The notes under the pieces were generated by a model, which was not told the origin of the DNA, made no database searches, and saw only the letters and a program-made list of their open reading frames with translations. The position numbers were made by a program, and so were the translations under genes. From NCBI GenBank assembly GCA_000091205.1, contig AP006493.2: DNA of 64,000 nucleotides; one strand, 5' to 3'. Of the stretch, positions 1 to 15,070 are shown piece after piece. The first letter of the stretch is position 1, and every line of letters begins with the position of its first letter. Origin of the DNA: Cyanidioschyzon merolae. Its lineage: Eukaryota.

Positions 1-3000
1 CCCCCCATTCCAGTATTAATGTCTCTAGCGATTGGTCCGAGGGGAATCTTTTCCATCATAGTACTGTGTGTGGCCACCTGGATACTCCAGTACGCGCAGT
101 AGTATGGATGCATTTTAGCTTGACCGCCTCGTCGTTTCCTATGTTTTGGGCCCCGGCCTTCGCGCGTGGTCTGAATCGCGCGCTCGCTTGTGTTGCTTTC
201 GTGTGTGTCGTTCTTCAACATTTTTTGTCTCCGTTTTGTTCTCTCAACATCTCACATCACTTAAATGCTGCTTTCTCGGTGCCAGGTTGTCTCCAATGTA
301 ACGCAAATATCTTATCCGAACAAAGAAAATGTTCACATTATGTTATTTTCGGTATTTTTCTGCTAAGATTCTTGTCGAATTTTGTTCCCATCCTACCTAA
401 TTAATGGCCTTCCAACTGCACATGGCTCGGTATTGTTGAGCTTTCAGTTATCTGCGACTTCAGACCAGCCCAATGGCTGTGTGCGTTGTTTGCTCCGCTT
501 AGTAACTCTGCTATCCTCATCGTGTTTCTTCACACGATTTTGATCGTTGTTTGCAAGCCCTTCGTCCATACATTCATATCCACCGGGTTTCAGAGCTCTC
601 CGAATATCCACAGTAGTCATCATTGTTCGTATTTCGTTCTTGGTTATGAACTTGCTGTAAGTCTCCCTACTCAGCTGCAAGCTCATAGCTACATATCCTC
701 TTTGGAACATATTCTCTGTTGCAACTCTATCTTTTCTCTTTCAGCGTTCCTAGCACTAGCCGTTACCTAGCCCGAATTTGCTAGTGGCTACCTTCCAGGC
801 GACTCTGGTGCGGTTTCTTCGTCGACAGCTTGTAGGTCCGGGACCTGTTGTTGCCTGCGTCTGGATCCGATTCATGGATGATCCGAGAGCAATTTTGGAA
901 AATAAAGACGACCCGAGCCCTAAGATCTCTGGCAGCCATACAGTGACCGTGGGCACTTTATTTCTATTAGGAGCTGCAATCTCCGTTTCCGCGTACCGAT
1001 CATTCTCTAGGAGGCGACCGATATCACTTTGCGCGGTCGGTATGCAGTATGCAGCACACCGGTCTGTACGCCATTTCGCTCAGCAGCTGTGCGTCGCACC
1101 TCGACTGGGCTCGTTTCTGGAGTGAGCGTCTGATACAGGAAACGGACCCTACGTATCGATGCGCGTGCCGTGGTTGTTCAGACAAGGCACATGGATATAA
1201 TTTGTTGGGTCGATTCAGGATTTGAATGTACGTCTAGCGTCGCGTCCTTACCATAAGCATCCACAGGCGCTAAGCGTACGTTATATCTGTTTCTCTCCTG
1301 CCGACCCGTATTCAGCATTCCGACTCGGATTCCGTTTTCAGTGAAGTTGAGAAGATCCAGTACAGCTGATTACCCTCACCCGTGCCCATCAATACGGTCT
1401 AGCAATGCACCTCAGTCTATCGCTTTGCCAGTGCTTGCGGTACCAGGCATAATTTCATACAAGCTGAGATCCAACATTGTTTACCATCCATATAGGTTGT
1501 TTACAGGAATGAACACATTGTCGCAGGGCAGCATGCAGGGAACTACATGTGCACTAGAAACAGACCATGATCGAGGCCTCTTCTTCTGGTCTGTATTCTG
1601 ATTCGTTGGATTCACGCACAACACTGTTCCCTATGCTCTTTCTTGTACGCGTACACTGAATTCACGAACCACTGTTCACTAATCTGTCTAGTTATTGCCC
1701 CTACACATCTCTAGAGTAGCAATAGCATTGTTCCGCGCTACCGTTCCTGGAAGGCGGAATCAGCCACCGCGCCGCCTCGGCATCAAAGAGCAGCTGGCCC
1801 CGATATGAAAATGAGCTTTTCGCCCATACAAGTCTGCTTGCGGCTGCTACAGGGATGCTTGGTTGGAGGCAAAGATCGCGAGCACCCAAACTCTGACCTT
1901 AGCGTCCTTGCTTCTTGTTTATTGTTCAAAGCTTGCTGCTTGGCGTCTCGCCTTTATTCCTTATGACCTAGAGTTTACCAGATGCGGCTTCTGAAACATG
2001 CTGCCGGCACCGTATCCACAAAGCACAGACTGGCTTCACCTGTAGCTCACTCCGGACATGTAGCGGTTCATGCCGATAAACGCACTAGAGCCAGTACTCG
2101 AACCACTCCAAACGCGGGTACCGCGGAAGAGTCGGAGCTTGTCTGGACGAGACTGTAGCAAACTCCAAGGTACCAGTTGAATGTCGCGCGTCCACTTGAG
2201 CTTCATCTAGACTTACATCATGCACATTCTGACTAGCTTCGCTGCGTGAGGGTTGCGCTCTGGGCTACGCCTCGTCGGTCGGAGTCGTGGCGACAGGCCC
2301 AATCAGGTCGATCGTTCCATAAGCACCGGTTTGTTGCTAGCAGTAGGCTGCCTTGTGCGATCAGCAGGACTGGCACGACTGTGCTCATGAGCACGGGAAC
2401 TTGCTTTGCATTAATTATGAAGTATATACATAGTGTGCGTCTTCCAGGGCACCAGAACATAAATATAAACATCGTTCTACACAAAGTTTGGAGCAGTGTG
2501 CAGAGCTTCTGGCACAGTACACTCTGCCTTTATAACTATGGGGATCAGGCTGTGGTAACGTTCTTTCTAGTGACGTCTACTGACAGCCAGGGTCATTTCA
2601 CTGCCGATATTTTTCCTGGCAGTCCTTCTCATCTGCAGTGCATCAACGGAATAACCGTGAGATATTTACTCCTTGGCCTTATAACTTTCCGTTTTCATGC
2701 TTTCCACTGCAGGAGCTGTAGAATTGTACGACTATAACCAATTCTATTTCTCCACATTCAGTCGCGAATCTTGATCATATTGCATCCAATATTGCATTTC
2801 GTTTTTTTTTTTGAAATAATTTCCATAGATTTTTCTCGTATCTTCCCAACTGTGAAATCCTTAACGCTCTCACTGCACCGTTCCAAGCACCACGCCACAG
2901 TGCTAACAGCCAATTTTCATATCTGAATGTATGTTCGAGCGGAGCGCTCAACAACTCCCCAGCCACCATACTATTTCGAAGCATAGATGCATGCAATGCT

Positions 3001-3327
3001 CGGCTCATTCTTTCTCATGTAACCGACAGCTGCTGCTTTGACTCTCGGGAAGTATTGGCGCTACTGTACTTCTTCGCACATAAAACTGTATTCCGCGGCT
3101 TTCCACGATAGCACACACGAATACTTGTATGCTACTTTGCTCGTTCGTATAAGTTGCTATGGTTGTGTGTCTTACCGTAATGCCTGGCAATATGCTGCGG
3201 GATGCTTTTTCGCGATAGAGCGCGTATTACCATCATTGCTCAAACACTATCCTATGGCAGAAAAAGCGGCACCTAGAGTGGTACCATCGGTACTGTTCGC
3301 CCCTGTTTTGCAGAGCAGATTGCCAGA

Positions 3328-5544
3328 TCAGCAGGCTGCAACTACAACACTTACGCGAGCCTCCGTTAAAACACGTGCTGCACTCGTCCAAATGTGATAG
3401 AGCCTTTCTGCATACGGCATGATACCCACAATACCCTCTGTGCCGAGCCCTGATCCCCATACCTTGCGCAGAGCATCGACCCGCGCAGGCCACAACACTG
3501 CATGTGCCACAGCATGCGATGCGTACGTCCCGTAGCAGCTCACGAGAACGCCGTCGACCACAAGGCGCCCTGAGCGAGTCAACGGCGCATAGAGACCATT
3601 GTGCGTAACTAAAGTCTCGATTGCCACTACGGGGTCCGGCAGGTGCGCAGCAACGTCCAGCAGAGCGTCGCCAACGCGGATTTCTTCCGCGAAAACTGCC
3701 TCAACGGCGGAGGTATCCAACTCAAGGCTCTGACGTATGTGCTCCTGCTGATGCTGCTGCTGCTGCTTCTGTGAAATACACGAGAAAGCGGTCGTCATAC
3801 CGTAAAAGTCTCTAGAGTGTTCGATCATTCGATATACCAGATGCTGTCTCGTCAGACGCAGCTGCTTTCCGGAACGCGTCTTGATCGCCAGAATCTCTGC
3901 AGTAGCGCCGGCCTCGTTATGCAACCATCCTAGTACACTATCTTCGACCAGTTGCCCGCGCCCATTGACGCCCATTACGGCCATACCTGATCGAAGCTCG
4001 CTTATCTGCAGATGGTTGCCCAGACCATCGATCAGCACCGAGGCATCCGCGGGGAAGCAGACCGCAGAGCCTTCGCCCACAGCGGTCTGCGTCACATTTG
4101 TCGTTGCCGACGGTTCTGCAGTAACGGAGGGCGTCGGTGATGCCGTCGGAGTAGGCGTCGGTGTTGCGATGTATAATGTGAAGAGGTCATTATAGATGCC
4201 TGGTTTGCCTAGGCCTCCGAACAGGACCGGGTCGTTTTGATCGGTATCCCAAAGAACTGCACCGTATCGCGGAGGTGGAAGCGTAGTATTGCTTGTCTTG
4301 TTAAGCTCGCCGTAGCTATAGGCTCCATTCGTTGTATTGTCACCGTCTACCCAAGTCCATTCAAGACTCGTAATATTGAACGTCCACAGGTCGTTGCAGG
4401 CACCGGGTGAACTACCACCGAAGAGATACAGAGTGTTTGACGAGTCTACAAATCCAGAGGAAAAGGACCTGTACCCCGGAGTGTTGCTCGATGACGGCAC
4501 TCCTTTCTCGCCGTATACTGCCCCATTCAAACCAATTTTTTCATCTCCAGACATCCAGGTCCATTCTTTGGAGCTGACATTGTACAGCCATAAATCATTG
4601 AGAAGGCCGCCAGGTCTGACAATCTCTCCATCACCGCCAAAGAGCCAAAAGTTCCCATCAAGGTCTCGCCACGATGTGGCTCCGTAACGTCCCGCGGGAT
4701 AATTGCTCGGCGATGCCTGGCGAAACGTACCATAGCTTCCAGAGGGGTCCGGCTCTTGACTGCCCCCTACCCAGCTCCATTCGTTGTTCGCTGGGTTATA
4801 CTGCCACAAGTCACCGTAACTACTTCCATTAGCACCAGATCCACCAAAGAGATAAAACTGGTCATCCAAGCCAACCCAGGCCGCGGTTTTGTAGCGAGCA
4901 CCAGGCGTGTTGCTTGAAGACGAGTTTCCACGAGGACCATATGTCGGGGAAACATTGGTCTTGTTGGATCCCTGCACCCATGTCCATTCGCCCGACGATA
5001 CATTATACATCCACATATCACTATAGCCCGAGTTAAAATTCCAGCCTCCATATAGCCAAAGGTTTCCGTAGCTGTCGCTCCAACCAGCGGATTGCGTCCT
5101 CGAAGGCGGATGGTTGCTCTTGTTGGGAACTCCGCGGGAGCCGTATACCCCTGCAGAGTTGAGGGATGCAGAGCCTCCAACCCAGGTCCAAGAGAACGTG
5201 CTTAGATTGTAGTTCCAGAGATCACCGAAGACGTCTCTCAAGTCGCTGCCACCACCAAACAACCAGAGCACCCCGTCAGCGCCGGTCCAGAAGACCGCAC
5301 CGTACCGCGCCGGAGGCACGTTGCTGGTGTTCGGCACACCCTGAACACCGTAGCTACCTGAACTGCCGGTAGAGTTACTGCCACCGATCCAGGTCCATAA
5401 AAAAGTATCTTCGGAGGACAAAACTCCACGAACTGTGTGTGTACTCGACACAACCAATACTACCACCAGGAGTCTCACTATGGAAAAATATCTTTTTCGC
5501 ATATAGGATACGAAAGGGGTTCTGCACCAGTGAAAAGAAAACAC
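3328..5544 (-). CDS. Secreted Kelch-repeat (6-bladed propeller-like) protein fused to a C-terminal Hedgehog-type Hint (Hog) autoprocessing domain
   Basis: Single 738-aa ORF that ends in TGA. The N-terminus has a probable signal peptide (from the 2nd Met, MRKRYFSIVRLLVVVLVVSS). It has about 6 Kelch-like repeats (LWLFGG ... DLWxYN ... WTWVxG ... PxxRYG) with many NxS/T sequons, then a Thr/Pro-rich linker (TPTPTPTASPTPS), then a Hint domain. The Hint domain starts with the Hedgehog cleavage motif G|CFPADASVLIDG and ends with NGLYAPLTRSGRLVVDGVLVSCYGTYASHAVAHAVLWP, which resembles the Hh Hog region around SCYA. Confidence 0.8.
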   Translation of the reverse strand: MFSFHWCRTPFVSYMRKRYFSIVRLLVVVLVVSSTHTVRGVLSSEDTFLWTWIGGSNSTGSSGSYGVQGVPNTSNVPPARYGAVFWTGADGVLWLFGGGSDLRDVFGDLWNYNLSTFSWTWVGGSASLNSAGVYGSRGVPNKSNHPPSRTQSAGWSDSYGNLWLYGGWNFNSGYSDMWMYNVSSGEWTWVQGSNKTNVSPTYGPRGNSSSSNTPGARYKTAAWVGLDDQFYLFGGSGANGSSYGDLWQYNPANNEWSWVGGSQEPDPSGSYGTFRQASPSNYPAGRYGATSWRDLDGNFWLFGGDGEIVRPGGLLNDLWLYNVSSKEWTWMSGDEKIGLNGAVYGEKGVPSSSNTPGYRSFSSGFVDSSNTLYLFGGSSPGACNDLWTFNITSLEWTWVDGDNTTNGAYSYGELNKTSNTTLPPPRYGAVLWDTDQNDPVLFGGLGKPGIYNDLFTLYIATPTPTPTASPTPSVTAEPSATTNVTQTAVGEGSAVCFPADASVLIDGLGNHLQISELRSGMAVMGVNGRGQLVEDSVLGWLHNEAGATAEILAIKTRSGKQLRLTRQHLVYRMIEHSRDFYGMTTAFSCISQKQQQQHQQEHIRQSLELDTSAVEAVFAEEIRVGDALLDVAAHLPDPVVAIETLVTHNGLYAPLTRSGRLVVDGVLVSCYGTYASHAVAHAVLWPARVDALRKVWGSGLGTEGIVGIMPYAERLYHIWTSAARVLTEARVSVVVAAC

Positions 5545-6300: not shown

Positions 6301-7377
6301 TCACTCGTTGTTGATGCACTCCTCGCCAGAGCGGCAACAACGCACCTTGTTCACAAGGTTATCCGAAGCGATCAGGTACGTCCCGCACTGCTTTGTAGGG
6401 TCCTTGCATACACAGAATGACGGCAACAGCACCTGTTGCTGCTGCTGCTGTTGTCGCAGGTTATTGCTGTTGCTGAACGGGTTGTACGTACAGTTCTCTA
6501 TCTCGGCGTTGCAGCACTCCGGGCCACACGGAATATAGCTCGAGTTCGATACGTTGCCGGTCGTGCCGCTCATCGAGTTCGAGACGTACCCATACGCCTG
6601 GCACACGTACTCGGTCATCGGCTGGAAGCACTCGATGCCGATCCCCAGGCAGCAACCAGCCTCCAGACACTGCTGCGGCGAGTAGCTCGTGCGCTGCGTC
6701 CCGTGCTGCTCCCCGTACAGAAGCGTGTTCAGCAGACGCACAAACTGGTTGTTGTTGATATTATTGTTGGGCAGCTGCTGGTTCTGATTCACCGCGTTCG
6801 TGCACGGCTGGCGCTCAAACTCGCCCACAGCGCACGTCTTCTCGGGCTGGAAGCAGTACGGGTTCGACTCAAAGTCGCTCTGCTGCTTGCTGTTCTGCAC
6901 CCACTGGTTCTGCGCCTGCGAGTCGTAGCAGCAGCCCTAGGCATACCAGGTAAACTGGTTGATACCCGCGTTGCCGCACGGCTGGCGCTGCGCTCCCGGT
7001 GACGGGCAGACGGGTACTGGTGCCTGCACCTCCTGCAGCGCTACAGAGGCCTGCGGTGCATGGTTGATGTCGTAGTAGCACCAGGGCGCCAGGATGCCGT
7101 TCGCTGTTGGCTGCCAGCAGCATCCCGGTATCGCAGTGCACTCGTCTGGATAGATATAGCTCCAGCCGCAGGGGACGCGCTGCGTCACTGGAACAGCGCT
7201 GCACGCCGCTGAGACGCTCTTCAGAGTGCACGCGTTCGTCTGGGCGTTGAAGCAGCACCCGACTCGCTCGTAAGCGTCCTGGTTGATGCACTGTCCTGGA
7301 GATCCGCAGAGCTCATTGCAGAAATGGGGTGGGCGTCCGCGAAGTTTCTGGTGTTGGAGTAGGGGATGTTCCTCTCA
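6301..7377 (-). pseudogene. Cys-rich extracellular protein with trefoil (P-type) domain(s) and an N/Q-rich low-complexity region; the reading frame contains an in-frame TAG
   Basis: The minus-strand frame reads ...CNELCGSPGQCINQDAYERVGCCFNAQTNAC...RVPCGWSYIYPDECTAIPGCCWQPTANGILAPWCYYD, a textbook trefoil pattern (C..R.D/PC.......C...GCC[FW]......PWC[FY]). The same frame continues ...NQFTWYA*GCCYD... across a TAG at about 6934-6936, into ORF 6301-6900, which is full of Cys pairs and poly-Q/N. No ATG or signal peptide is present in this exon; see the neighbouring Kelch exon. Confidence 0.5.
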
Positions 7378-7428
7378 ATGAAAAGACATCATTGATAAAG
7401 TCACTGCAAGCGTGTTTGAACATCCAAA

Positions 7429-7614
7429 TCAACCAAATATGATCGGATCAGTCTCAATGTTGTTCCAGAATGCTGACCCATAGCGAGCACCTGGTACAAT
7501 CCTTGGGTCGGATTCGTTCAATGCACCATATCTTGCTGGAGCATTCACTGCCGAGCTTTCATTAATCCACGCCCGTTGACCCACTTTGATATCGAATACC
7601 CACAGATTTTTCAA
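7429..7614 (-). CDS. Single Kelch-repeat exon or fragment, possibly spliced to the trefoil gene through a 60-nt GT...AG intron
   Basis: ORF MKNLWVFDIKVGQRAWINESSAVNAPARYG...IIFG parallels the Kelch repeats of the 3328-5544 protein. A GT donor just after ...ATA TTT G and an AG acceptor 60 nt downstream (7439 to 7380) would join it in frame to ...EEHPLLQHQKLRGRPPHFCNELCGSPGQC (the trefoil exon). Confidence 0.35.
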   Translation of the reverse strand: MKNLWVFDIKVGQRAWINESSAVNAPARYGALNESDPRIVPGARYGSAFWNNIETDPIIFG

Positions 7615-8083: not shown

Positions 8084-9211
8084 CTACTCACGCCCATCGG
8101 TATACTTGCCACGCCACTGACAATACGACCCCGAGTCCGAGAACTGTCCCTGGGTCGCCACTTCGGCTACGCGGCGGCCGGCCCCATCATTGGGAACGTA
8201 TTGCCGAGTGATGTACTTCTGAAGAATCGGGAAGAATACGTAGCGGAACCAGCCACGCTTTTCGGGGAAGAGGTTGCCGTCGGCGACACATCCGGGAATA
8301 ATAGCCACAGAGGTCACCCCGTCGCGGCCGTATCGATCACTGAGCGCCTTCGTTGTTAACACCTTCGCGGCTTTGGCGTCTTTGTAGGCTTTTGTGGGCT
8401 CAAACGGGCCTCTGTCCACCATGCCTGTCGTCTGCGGACCGAGCCCCGCGGCTAGACCAGACAAATCACCGAGACGAGCCTGTGGGGGGATCTTTCCCGG
8501 CAGCGAATTCGGCGAGTGGGTCTGAGTCGTCAGAAACACAATGCGCCTGCGCGATATTTTCAGCTTCGGCAACAGCTCCCGACATAGAAGCAAATGGCTC
8601 AGATGGCACACGTGCATGGTTTCCTCGATGCCGCCCACCGTGAAACGCGGTTTCTTGTCCGGCGGATGCTATATTGCGGCATTGCAGATCAGGGCATCCA
8701 GGTGATCGACGCGCGCCACACTTGACAGCTCTCTCACAAACTTTAATACAGAGGCGAAATCAGCCAGATCACAATGCAGCACTGTATAGGTGTCCTTTGG
8801 AAGGTTTACGCTGTTTGCTGCGCGCTCCGCCCGGTCGACGTCACGACATGCCATGACGATGTGCCAGTTGCCCTTGTTGACCAGAGCGCGAGCTGCATAC
8901 AGACCGACCCCAGAGGACGCGCCAGTGATCACGGCGATCTGCGACTGTTTCGGGCCCATACGAAGATGCAGCGCGTGGTGCCGGCGCGCTACAGGCGAAC
9001 GCTGCACCACCAAAGGAAGCGGATGCTGGCAGTGGTAACGATGTCCAGCTGCGAAGCACCTGTCACGTGCGGTACACAGCGGAAACGGTGCTCGAGTTGC
9101 AGCGGGTGCGCCAACTATGTGTTTTTCCTGGCACAGTGAAAAACAAACCAATACGTCTTGCAGTTTTTTGGGATAGATTTTCTCCGGTGGTAAAGCTGCC
9201 AACTTCATCAC
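8084..9211 (-). CDS. POR: Light-dependent NADPH:protochlorophyllide oxidoreductase (SDR family) with an N-terminal transit-peptide-like extension; one in-frame TAG (8669-8671)
   Basis: VITGASSGVGLYAARALVNKGNWHIVMACRD...LICNAAI, then TAG, then HPPDKKPRFTVGGIEETMHVCHLSHLLL...LGDLSGLAAGLG...KAYKDAKAAKVLTT...FPILQKYITRQYVPNDGAGRRVAEV. This aligns residue by residue with plant and algal POR. The TAG sits exactly at the conserved Tyr of CNAAVY(L/H)P. The two ORFs are in the same frame, and no GT/AG intron can remove the stop. Confidence 0.8.
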
Positions 9212-14005: not shown

Positions 14006-15070
14006 TCAAGATGCTTTCTTCGGCGTGCTCTGGAGTGCCTCTATACTGGATTGGAGGTCTTCTTTCTCGTCACTTTCCATGAACGGCAGTATTTGTAGTA
14101 CTTCAACGACACCATTCCGACCTAGCACACAAGGCAACGACAAGAATACATCCGCCGACTCGAGGCCTCGCAACGAGCCCGCATGCGTCGTTATTGGCAG
14201 CACTTTGCGCCGATCATGCACAATCGTTGTAACGATGCTTCCAACAGCGCTGCCAATGGCCCAGTTGGTGTAGCCTTTCAGCTTAATGACCTCGTAAGCC
14301 GCGGCTACAACTTGCTGATGGACACCTTTCACCAGATCATAGAATGCTGTGGACGCGCTCGCAGCGTCGGTCATGCGCTCGAAGCATGTTCGCAACGGCA
14401 CGCCACCAACCGTAATACCACTCCGGTACACGAACGAGGAGTCTCCGTGCTCGCCCAGTACCATGGCCTGGACGGAAGCGGTATCGATGCCCAGCCGCTG
14501 CGCCAGAAGTGTGCGGAAACGCGAAGAGTCCAAATATGTCCCTGAGCCAATCACACGTTCGCGGGGCAAGCCACTCATCTGCCACGCTAGATGTGTCAAT
14601 AGATCAACGGGGTTACTCACAACCAACAGGATTGTGTTCGGCGAATACTGCACCAGGGGCGGAATAATGCCTTTGAACAATGCGGCATTGCGATCCATGA
14701 GCTCAAGACGACTTTCTCCGGGCCGCTGACGCACACCTGCCGTTATAATACATACTGCTGAATGTGCTGTATCCTCGTAGGACTCGGCAGCCCGGATGCG
14801 GGTGCTATAGAACGCACCTCCATGCTGCAAGTCCATAACTTGACCCTTGAGTTTGTCCTTAAGAACGTCCACCAGTACCAGCTCACTACAAATATCTCGG
14901 GTCAAAATATTATACGCGCAAGCAACGCCAACGTCGCCAGCTCCAACCACGGTGATGCGGACGGGGTACGAACGTGCAAGCGCCGCACCCGGCGTGTCGA
15001 TCGCAGGCGAGACCTCCCCAAAGAGACTTCCCTGAAGCTCAGCCGCTGCCTCGTCGATCCCTGACGTCAT
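14006..15070 (-). CDS. LDH: L-lactate dehydrogenase (LDH/MDH superfamily, LDH-type Gln at the specificity position)
   Basis: RITVVGAGDVGVACAYNIL...LVDV...GQVMDLQHG (Rossmann fold). ITAGVRQRPGESRLEL (Gln102 and Arg109 equivalents). VSNPVD. LGEHGDSS (catalytic His). Ends in TGA. About 30-aa N-terminal extension. Confidence 0.85.
   Translation of the reverse strand: MTSGIDEAAAELQGSLFGEVSPAIDTPGAALARSYPVRITVVGAGDVGVACAYNILTRDICSELVLVDVLKDKLKGQVMDLQHGGAFYSTRIRAAESYEDTAHSAVCIITAGVRQRPGESRLELMDRNAALFKGIIPPLVQYSPNTILLVVSNPVDLLTHLAWQMSGLPRERVIGSGTYLDSSRFRTLLAQRLGIDTASVQAMVLGEHGDSSFVYRSGITVGGVPLRTCFERMTDAASASTAFYDLVKGVHQQVVAAAYEVIKLKGYTNWAIGSAVGSIVTTIVHDRRKVLPITTHAGSLRGLESADVFLSLPCVLGRNGVVEVLQILPFMESDEKEDLQSSIEALQSTPKKAS

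Follow-up and report, generated by a model that had tools for sequence, protein, structure and literature searches.

Can a Hedgehog-type autoprocessing domain serve a cargo entirely different from the Hedgehog signalling domain? The question is raised by CMK001C, a gene close to the start of a stretch of 64,000 nucleotides of the red alga Cyanidioschyzon merolae (contig AP006493.2 of GenBank assembly GCA_000091205.1; this whole stretch is called the window below). Its product joins a signal peptide, a six-bladed Kelch beta-propeller and a Thr/Pro/Ala-rich linker to a C-terminal Hog domain, made of a Hint core and a region that corresponds to Hedgehog's sterol recognition region (SRR), called adduct recognition region (ARR) in non-Hedgehog proteins. 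We consider it probable that this Kelch-Hog precursor undergoes Hedgehog-like autoprocessing in the secretory pathway, with a sterol as the most likely nucleophile.

The window is the left end of C. merolae chromosome 11. It opens with CCCCCCATT, the reverse complement of AATGGGGGG, the unit of which C. merolae telomeres consist (Nozaki 2007, PMC1955436); CMK001C is 3.3 kb away from the telomere and has its 3′ end towards it. A preliminary description, made from the letters of the window, had delimited a minus-strand open reading frame (ORF) at 3328..5544. This frame is present and encodes 738 amino acids when counted from GTG, but its 5′ end at 5544 is an in-frame upstream GTG; the true start is the first in-frame ATG, at 5502. 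The resulting 724-amino acid protein is 100% identical to BAM80407.1 / XP_005536443.1 / UniProt M1VCQ8, publicly annotated as 'similar to hedgehog protein', and CMK001C belongs to a Kelch/trefoil/Hog family that Cyanidiales red algae carry in their subtelomeres.

The N-terminal part of the protein has the features of a secreted glycoprotein. The core of the signal peptide is strongly hydrophobic, with hydropathy peaking at 3.3 in a window of 11 residues, and SignalP-5 places the peptide in the class SP(Sec/SPI), in a published table where CMK001C (BAM80407.1) is listed as 'K+Hog' (Data Set 8, PMC13353863). It is followed by a closed six-bladed Kelch propeller, whose blades carry W[ST]W motifs at amino acids 36, 105, 173, 242, 314 and 382. 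Pfam Kelch families (Kelch_1 to Kelch_6, E 2e-35 to 5e-07) and beta-propeller families match this region. An AlphaFold2 model of the whole protein (mean predicted local distance difference test score, pLDDT, of 85) shows the propeller followed by a disordered Thr/Pro linker, then a Hint domain rich in beta structure and, at the C-terminus, two helices. The propeller is modelled with pLDDT >90 over amino acids 30-447, and a Foldseek search with the whole-protein model returned Kelch propellers alone, the matches including the six-bladed Kelch domains of LZTR1, NS1-BP and KLHDC2 (target TM-score of about 0.8). N-x-S/T sequons are abundant, as the preliminary description had noticed: there are 15 of them, 14 in the Kelch part, about twice the number found in composition-preserving shuffles (6.9 +/- 2.3). 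The linker, PTPTPTASPTPSVTAEPSATTNVTQTAVGEGSAV, has a pLDDT <50 over amino acids 450-478, and its last residue, Val481, is the one that would carry the acyl group.

The C-terminal part is a Hog domain of the Hedgehog type. The Pfam Hint family PF01079 was matched with 115.2 bits (cutoff 29.7, E 4.1e-33) over profile positions 10-207 of 213, which corresponds to amino acids 493-718 in the numbering of the 738-amino acid ORF. The proposal of a secreted Kelch propeller joined through a T/P linker to a Hedgehog-type Hog domain is thus confirmed. A phmmer search against PDB sequences retrieved human SHH (E 2.6e-10) as well as Drosophila Hh. When the last 257 residues were modelled and searched with Foldseek on their own, the best match was Drosophila Hh-C 6TYY (E 1.1e-11, target TM-score 0.90, root-mean-square deviation 2.0 Å), followed by 1AT0 (E 1.4e-11, target TM-score 0.89), with deviations of 2.0-2.1 Å across the two structures. 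No match to the Hedgehog signalling domain (HH_signal, or HhN, PF01085) was obtained with Pfam at E <= 1, whereas the true Hedgehogs in the comparison set do carry this domain.

We then examined the catalytic residues one by one in an alignment of 27 Hog sequences that included true Hedgehogs (residue numbers are those of the 724-amino acid protein). The active site of Hh-C comprises C1, D46, T69, H72 and C143 (PMC12054796). Cys482 aligns with Cys1 of SHH and Drosophila Hh, a residue kept in every Hog sequence that covers this position, so that the scissile bond is predicted to be Val481-Cys482. The threonine and the histidine of the TxxH motif (LTRQH), Thr551 and His554, are conserved, as is the cysteine of motif J (VSCYG), Cys656, kept at this position in all Cyanidiales copies. 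The Cys-Phe junction, the TxxH motif and the SCY motif, on which the preliminary description had made its proposal depend, therefore all align with Hedgehog catalytic residues. The offsets of His528, Thr551 and His554 from the first cysteine (47, 70 and 73) are close to those of their Hh-C counterparts (46, 69 and 72), whereas the SCY cysteine lies at 175 instead of 143 because of a Gln-rich insert. This insert, at amino acids 560-606 (3685-3825, minus strand), lies between TxxH and the next Hint strands in a low-confidence part of the model; both its length and its sequence differ from one paralog or Cyanidiococcus copy to another, and at this point true Hedgehogs vary too and are shorter.

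The position of Hedgehog Asp46 is occupied by His528. All Cyanidiales copies have a histidine there, as do six unrelated non-Hedgehog Hog proteins, which come from metagenomes and transcriptome assemblies (P0132, P0139, P0141, P0142, P0143 and P0149). Histidine thus appears, in these alignments, to have recurred in nature as an alternative general-base residue, and natural counterparts of the engineered D46H Hedgehog appear to be widespread. In Hedgehog, the D46H/D303H substitution retains structure and cholesterolysis and leads to the acceptance of more sterols (review PMC9163320); D46H autoprocesses in cells (PMC12054796) and is active in both Drosophila and human Hedgehog (PMC9163320, PMC12054796). 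By analogy, it is plausible that His528 is a working general base.

The region downstream of the Hint core retains two Hedgehog motifs to different degrees. For motif K, SHAVAHAVLWPARV, the alignment with both Drosophila Hh and SHH is significant. Motif L, GIMPYAERLY, is paired by the multiple alignment with Hedgehog G[IV]HWYxxLL, and its Y..LY core is kept. The region is modelled as a helix-loop-helix (H663-686 and H697-723) with low-to-moderate confidence, and the protein stops directly after this helical tail, at ...VVVAAC. The terminal ...AAC (3331-3339, minus strand), a cysteine after a hydrophobic stretch, was observed in every Cyanidiales Hog protein aligned, the other Hog and Hedgehog proteins of the alignment being without it; a disulfide and an acylation site are both possibilities for this cysteine.

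Selection was evaluated region by region against two copies, a metagenomic ortholog (P0007, on contig L001) and a close, paralog-like metagenomic copy on contig L003. The Hog halves of CMK001C and P0007 share 72-80% identity, with a synonymous divergence (dS) of 0.8 and a ratio of nonsynonymous to synonymous divergence (dN/dS) of 0.20; for the SRR/ARR the ratio against L001 is 0.16. The Kelch halves share 40% identity and their synonymous sites are saturated. Against the L003 copy, dN/dS is 0.80 for Kelch and 0.51 for Hog, and dS is twice as high in Kelch as in Hog. The Hog half, including the adduct-recognition tail, is under purifying selection and is more constrained than the faster-evolving Kelch half.

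Table 1. Features of the telomere-proximal part of the window, with positions counted from its first nucleotide (aa, amino acids of the 724-residue protein).
Feature	Position	Strand	Basis or remark
CMK001C, complete coding sequence, 724 aa	3328..5502	(-)	TGA stop at 3328-3330; 100% identity to BAM80407.1
Signal peptide, aa 1-26 (MRKRYFSIVRLLVVVLVVSSTHTVRG)	5425..5502	(-)	hydropathy, SignalP-5, modelled lone helix
Six-bladed Kelch beta-propeller (cargo), aa 27-447, 14 sequons	4162..5424	(-)	Pfam, W[ST]W blades, model
Thr/Pro/Ala-rich linker, aa 448-481, last residue Val481	4060..4161	(-)	modelled as disordered
Hint core, aa 482-659	3526..4059	(-)	Pfam PF01079, alignments, Hog-only model
Cys482, predicted nucleophile of the N-to-S acyl shift (Hh-C Cys1)	4057..4059	(-)	aligned with SHH and Drosophila Hh
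His528 (position of Hedgehog Asp46)	3919-3921	(-)	alignment
Thr551 (TxxH; Hh-C T69)	3850-3852	(-)	alignment; conserved
His554 (TxxH; Hh-C H72)	3841-3843	(-)	alignment; conserved
Cys656 (SCY cysteine, motif J; Hh-C C143)	3535-3537	(-)	alignment; conserved
SRR/ARR, aa 660-724	3331..3525	(-)	PF01079 match to 207/213, motif alignment, modelled helices
Telomere repeat unit, one copy (AATGGGGGG on the minus strand)	1..9	(-)	marks the window start as a chromosome end
Kelch+trefoil remnant, upstream of CMK001C	6301..7614	(-)	last Kelch blade, T/P linker, trefoil, Cys-rich modules
Remnant: last Kelch blade, the sole one left	7423-7614	(-)	
Remnant: T/P linker in a shifted frame	7328-7393	(-)	
Protochlorophyllide-reductase-like short-chain dehydrogenase ORF	8084-9211	(-)	in-frame TAG at 8669-8671 after '...CNAAI'
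CMK006C, intact L-lactate dehydrogenase (Ldh_1_N, Ldh_1_C)	14006-15070	(-)	'L' gene of Nozaki 2007

Taken together with what is known of Hedgehog, these data suggest the following pathway. The signal peptide would direct the precursor into the endoplasmic reticulum, where the Kelch propeller, judging from its sequons, would be N-glycosylated. The Hog domain would then act once on its own chain: Cys482 would attack the carbonyl of Val481 in an N-to-S acyl shift assisted by Thr551 and His554, and the thioester may move to Cys656, as shown for C143 of Hedgehog. The thioester would be resolved by a hydroxyl nucleophile that the C-terminal helices hold in place and His528 activates. This nucleophile would most likely be a membrane sterol, because the ARR is conserved and constrained, because a histidine base is compatible with sterol use in Hedgehog and because a cycloartenol-type sterol pathway is predicted in C. 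merolae (PMC2817430). The glycosylated propeller would thus be freed on its Thr/Pro stalk and the Hog fragment discarded. That auto-cleavage would release the Kelch cargo is reasonable to infer, and the propeller would probably be lipid-anchored on the surface of wall-less haploid cells. Cleavage, the sterol adduct, surface display and a binding partner for the Kelch propeller are what we infer on this reading.

Several observations weigh against it. The preliminary description had recognized an exact Hedgehog cleavage context, which is overstated: the junction CFP matches Hedgehog, but the residue at -1 is Val481 (Lys in one Cyanidiococcus copy) where Hedgehog has Gly. Where the Hedgehog SRR has HWY, CMK001C has MPY; motif L by itself gives no significant match; and the SRR part of the model is of low confidence (pLDDT 44-78). 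C. merolae sterols were without chemical characterisation as of PMC2817430, and the published accounts of Cyanidiales Hog proteins (PMC9812998, PMC13353863) report no experiment in which either cleavage or an adduct is shown. The Hog loci are targets of the histone mark H3K27me3 and are described as moderately repressed (Mikulski 2017, PMC5405695).

The first of these observations bear on the alternative that survives best. The Hog domain would cleave its precursor, with water or a non-sterol nucleophile resolving the thioester, and the Kelch propeller would be a soluble secreted glycoprotein or would bear another adduct. Given the MPY sequence and the motif-L match, water or a nucleophile of another kind could take the place of the sterol, and the valine at -1 points the same way; moreover, the region was renamed 'adduct recognition region' in non-Hedgehog proteins, sterol use being unproven there (Burglin 2008, PMC2362128). 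A tail that served hydrolysis only would not, however, be expected to be as constrained as the C-terminal region is, with its low dN/dS and its retained motif K and Y..LY core, and the D46H Hedgehogs show that a histidine base is compatible with sterol activation. We regard hydrolysis or a non-sterol adduct as rather unlikely, and sterol-dependent autoprocessing as the better account.

A second alternative is that CMK001C is a silenced or decaying subtelomeric duplicate with a non-catalytic, relic Hog domain. The gene is close to the telomere and adjoins two broken genes (a Kelch+trefoil remnant and a protochlorophyllide oxidoreductase copy with an in-frame stop, see below), it belongs to the H3K27me3 targets and its Kelch part has a dN/dS of 0.8 against the close paralog. 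In contrast, the 724-codon frame is intact, all the catalytic residues are present and the Hog part is constrained against the L001 ortholog. Expression also argues against decay: CMK001C reaches 488-547 and 674-717 transcripts per million (TPM) in two haploid strains, compared with about 36 in walled diploid cells (log fold changes of -3.55 and -4.02, about 14-19x higher in wall-less haploid cells; PMC13353863). Finally, a metagenomic relative is found in the same position and orientation beside a telomere. Its contig L001, from a hot-spring metagenome, carries the Kelch+Hog gene P0007 at 883-3171 and ends, about 4 kb downstream, in two tandem AATGGGGGG units (7199-7216); subtelomeric position and orientation are therefore conserved. 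We rejected the pseudogene explanation, which is very improbable in view of the intact ORF, the purifying selection on Hog and the high expression in haploid cells. The hypothesis that the C-terminal module is an intein performing protein splicing, which would agree with the Hint fold that inteins share, with the weaker Foldseek matches of the Hog model to inteins and bacterial intein-like (BIL) domains (best intein E 1e-7) and with the grouping of these genes as 'intein-containing' under the gene ontology term 'protein splicing' (Mikulski 2017, PMC5405695), was likewise rejected as most improbable, since the protein ends in ...AAC right after the helical tail and has no C-extein with the C-terminal Asn and +1 Cys/Ser/Thr junction of inteins, Pfam reported PF01079 and no intein family, Hh-C folds are ahead of the best intein by about four orders of magnitude in E-value, and the genes have been assigned anew to the non-Hh Hog proteins (Plant Cell 2026, PMC13353863).

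Earlier publications already cover the gene along with its architecture, genomic setting and expression pattern, and the novelty that the preliminary description implied for the Kelch+Hog combination does not hold (PMC9812998, PMC1955436, PMC13353863). Nozaki 2007 (PMC1955436) catalogued the subtelomeric elements of all 40 C. merolae chromosome ends, including the PH element at 11L, and the symbols of Figure 3 in that work include T for trefoil factor, P for protochlorophyllide oxidoreductase, L for lactate dehydrogenase and H for hedgehog protein. Cho 2023 (PMC9812998) described Kelch domains fused to trefoil or Hint through a Thr/Pro/Ala-rich linker and duplicated in subtelomeres, with 11 Kelch+Hint copies in Cyanidioschyzon and 3 in Cyanidiococcus, and termed their function unknown. 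According to the recent reclassification (PMC13353863), C. merolae has 17 Hog genes, and their expression is haploid-biased. What is added here is the per-residue catalytic audit, the region-wise selection analysis and the mosaic history described below.

CMK001C shares its Kelch, Thr/Pro/Ala linker and Hint parts with the other members of this family in C. merolae and Cyanidiococcus yangmingshanensis, without difference, and lies within the PH element at 11L together with trefoil, protochlorophyllide oxidoreductase and lactate dehydrogenase genes. With animal Hh-C (1AT0, 6TYY) it has in common the Hint fold, the Cys1-Phe start, TxxH, the SCY cysteine and SRR motifs K and L, and with animal Hedgehog as a whole the signal peptide and the location of Hog at the C-terminus of a secreted cargo. 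It differs from animal Hh-C by His for Asp46, Val for Gly at -1, MPY for HWY, a Gln-rich insert of 30-45 residues after TxxH and the conserved ...AAC end; its cargo is a Kelch propeller instead of the HhN signalling domain. With neither HhN nor Gly at -1, CMK001C is not a bona fide Hedgehog. It resembles the Hog proteins other than Hedgehog that are found in protists, in nematodes and in other red algae (Burglin 2008), in which Hog is attached to lineage-specific secreted N-terminal cargoes, and it shares with other protist Hog proteins the histidine at the Asp46 position. The motif-J cysteine is replaced by Ser, Thr or Asp in other red-algal and moss Hog proteins (Burglin 2008, PMC2362128), whereas Cyanidiales keep Cys.

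The preliminary description had considered Hog domains rare outside Metazoa, which is not the case. An exhaustive phmmer search with the Hog domain retrieved 2,376 representative clusters at E <= 1e-3, and they had previously been described across many protist groups in a survey that did not include Cyanidioschyzon (Burglin 2008, PMC2362128). Four clusters were found at E <= 1e-30, three of them already in our Cyanidiales comparison set and the fourth (P0153) a Hint domain alone. Of the 150 best of these 2,376 hits, the ten longest were scanned for a Kelch cargo on Hog proteins from outside Cyanidiales, and none was seen; the N-terminal parts were HH_signal, trypsin, AIG1+CARD or nothing recognisable.

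The Kelch+Hog genes are mosaics whose two halves have different histories. The Kelch domain of P0007 groups with that of the Cyanidiococcus protein P0041 (100% bootstrap, Kimura distance 0.41), whereas the Hog domain of this protein is Cyanidioschyzon-type. The pattern could stem from an exchange of modules at the linker or from gene conversion homogenising the Hog modules within a genome. Outside Cyanidiales, the nearest relatives of the Kelch cargo are bacterial secreted Kelch proteins, with 32-43% identity (median 38%) over the whole six-bladed propeller; the second Cyanidiales Kelch lineage is no closer than these. Many of these bacterial proteins carry a type IX secretion C-terminal sorting domain and are automatically annotated as 'N-acetylneuraminic acid mutarotase'; unlike CMK001C, they have no Hog and different C-terminal modules. 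In a Kelch tree of 40 taxa, built without eukaryotic outgroups, the six Cyanidiales Kelch domains group with 68% bootstrap only. A bacterial origin of the Kelch cargo is possible, and we consider it a lead and not a demonstration.

The neighbours of CMK001C are in various states of preservation. A Kelch+trefoil sequence does adjoin CMK001C, as had been announced, but it is a decayed remnant and not a gene: three in-frame stops were found at 7429-7431, 7375-7377 and 6937-6939, and its trefoil domain is still matched by Pfam (Trefoil PF00088, E 1.1e-10). The short-chain dehydrogenase ORF further upstream probably represents the 'P' of the PH element in the form of a subtelomeric pseudogene, although its in-frame stop may also be due to an intron or to an error of sequencing. 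Data Set 8 lists no protein between CMK001C and CMK006C (PMC13353863), which is consistent with broken neighbours.

As a discovery, CMK001C is of limited importance; it is useful for testing ideas, in an alga that is genetically tractable and whose Hog genes number 17. The Cyanidiales copies keep a complete Hedgehog catalytic set, including the cysteine equivalent to C143, together with a histidine general base already studied by Hedgehog mutagenesis. The family is therefore well suited to the questions of whether autoprocessing that depends on sterol is older than animals and of what role a non-Hedgehog Hog protein has. We tentatively suggest that a Hog domain with a natural histidine base may join Val481 by an ester bond to a membrane lipid, an algal sterol or some other, anchoring the heavily glycosylated Kelch propeller on its mucin-like stalk in the outer leaflet of the membrane as a surface coat of haploid cells in hot acid, a coat that subtelomeric swapping of Kelch and Hog modules may diversify. 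The haploid-biased expression in wall-less cells would fit such a role. If true, a lipidated Kelch propeller would represent Hedgehog-style protein lipidation outside animals, on an entirely different cargo.

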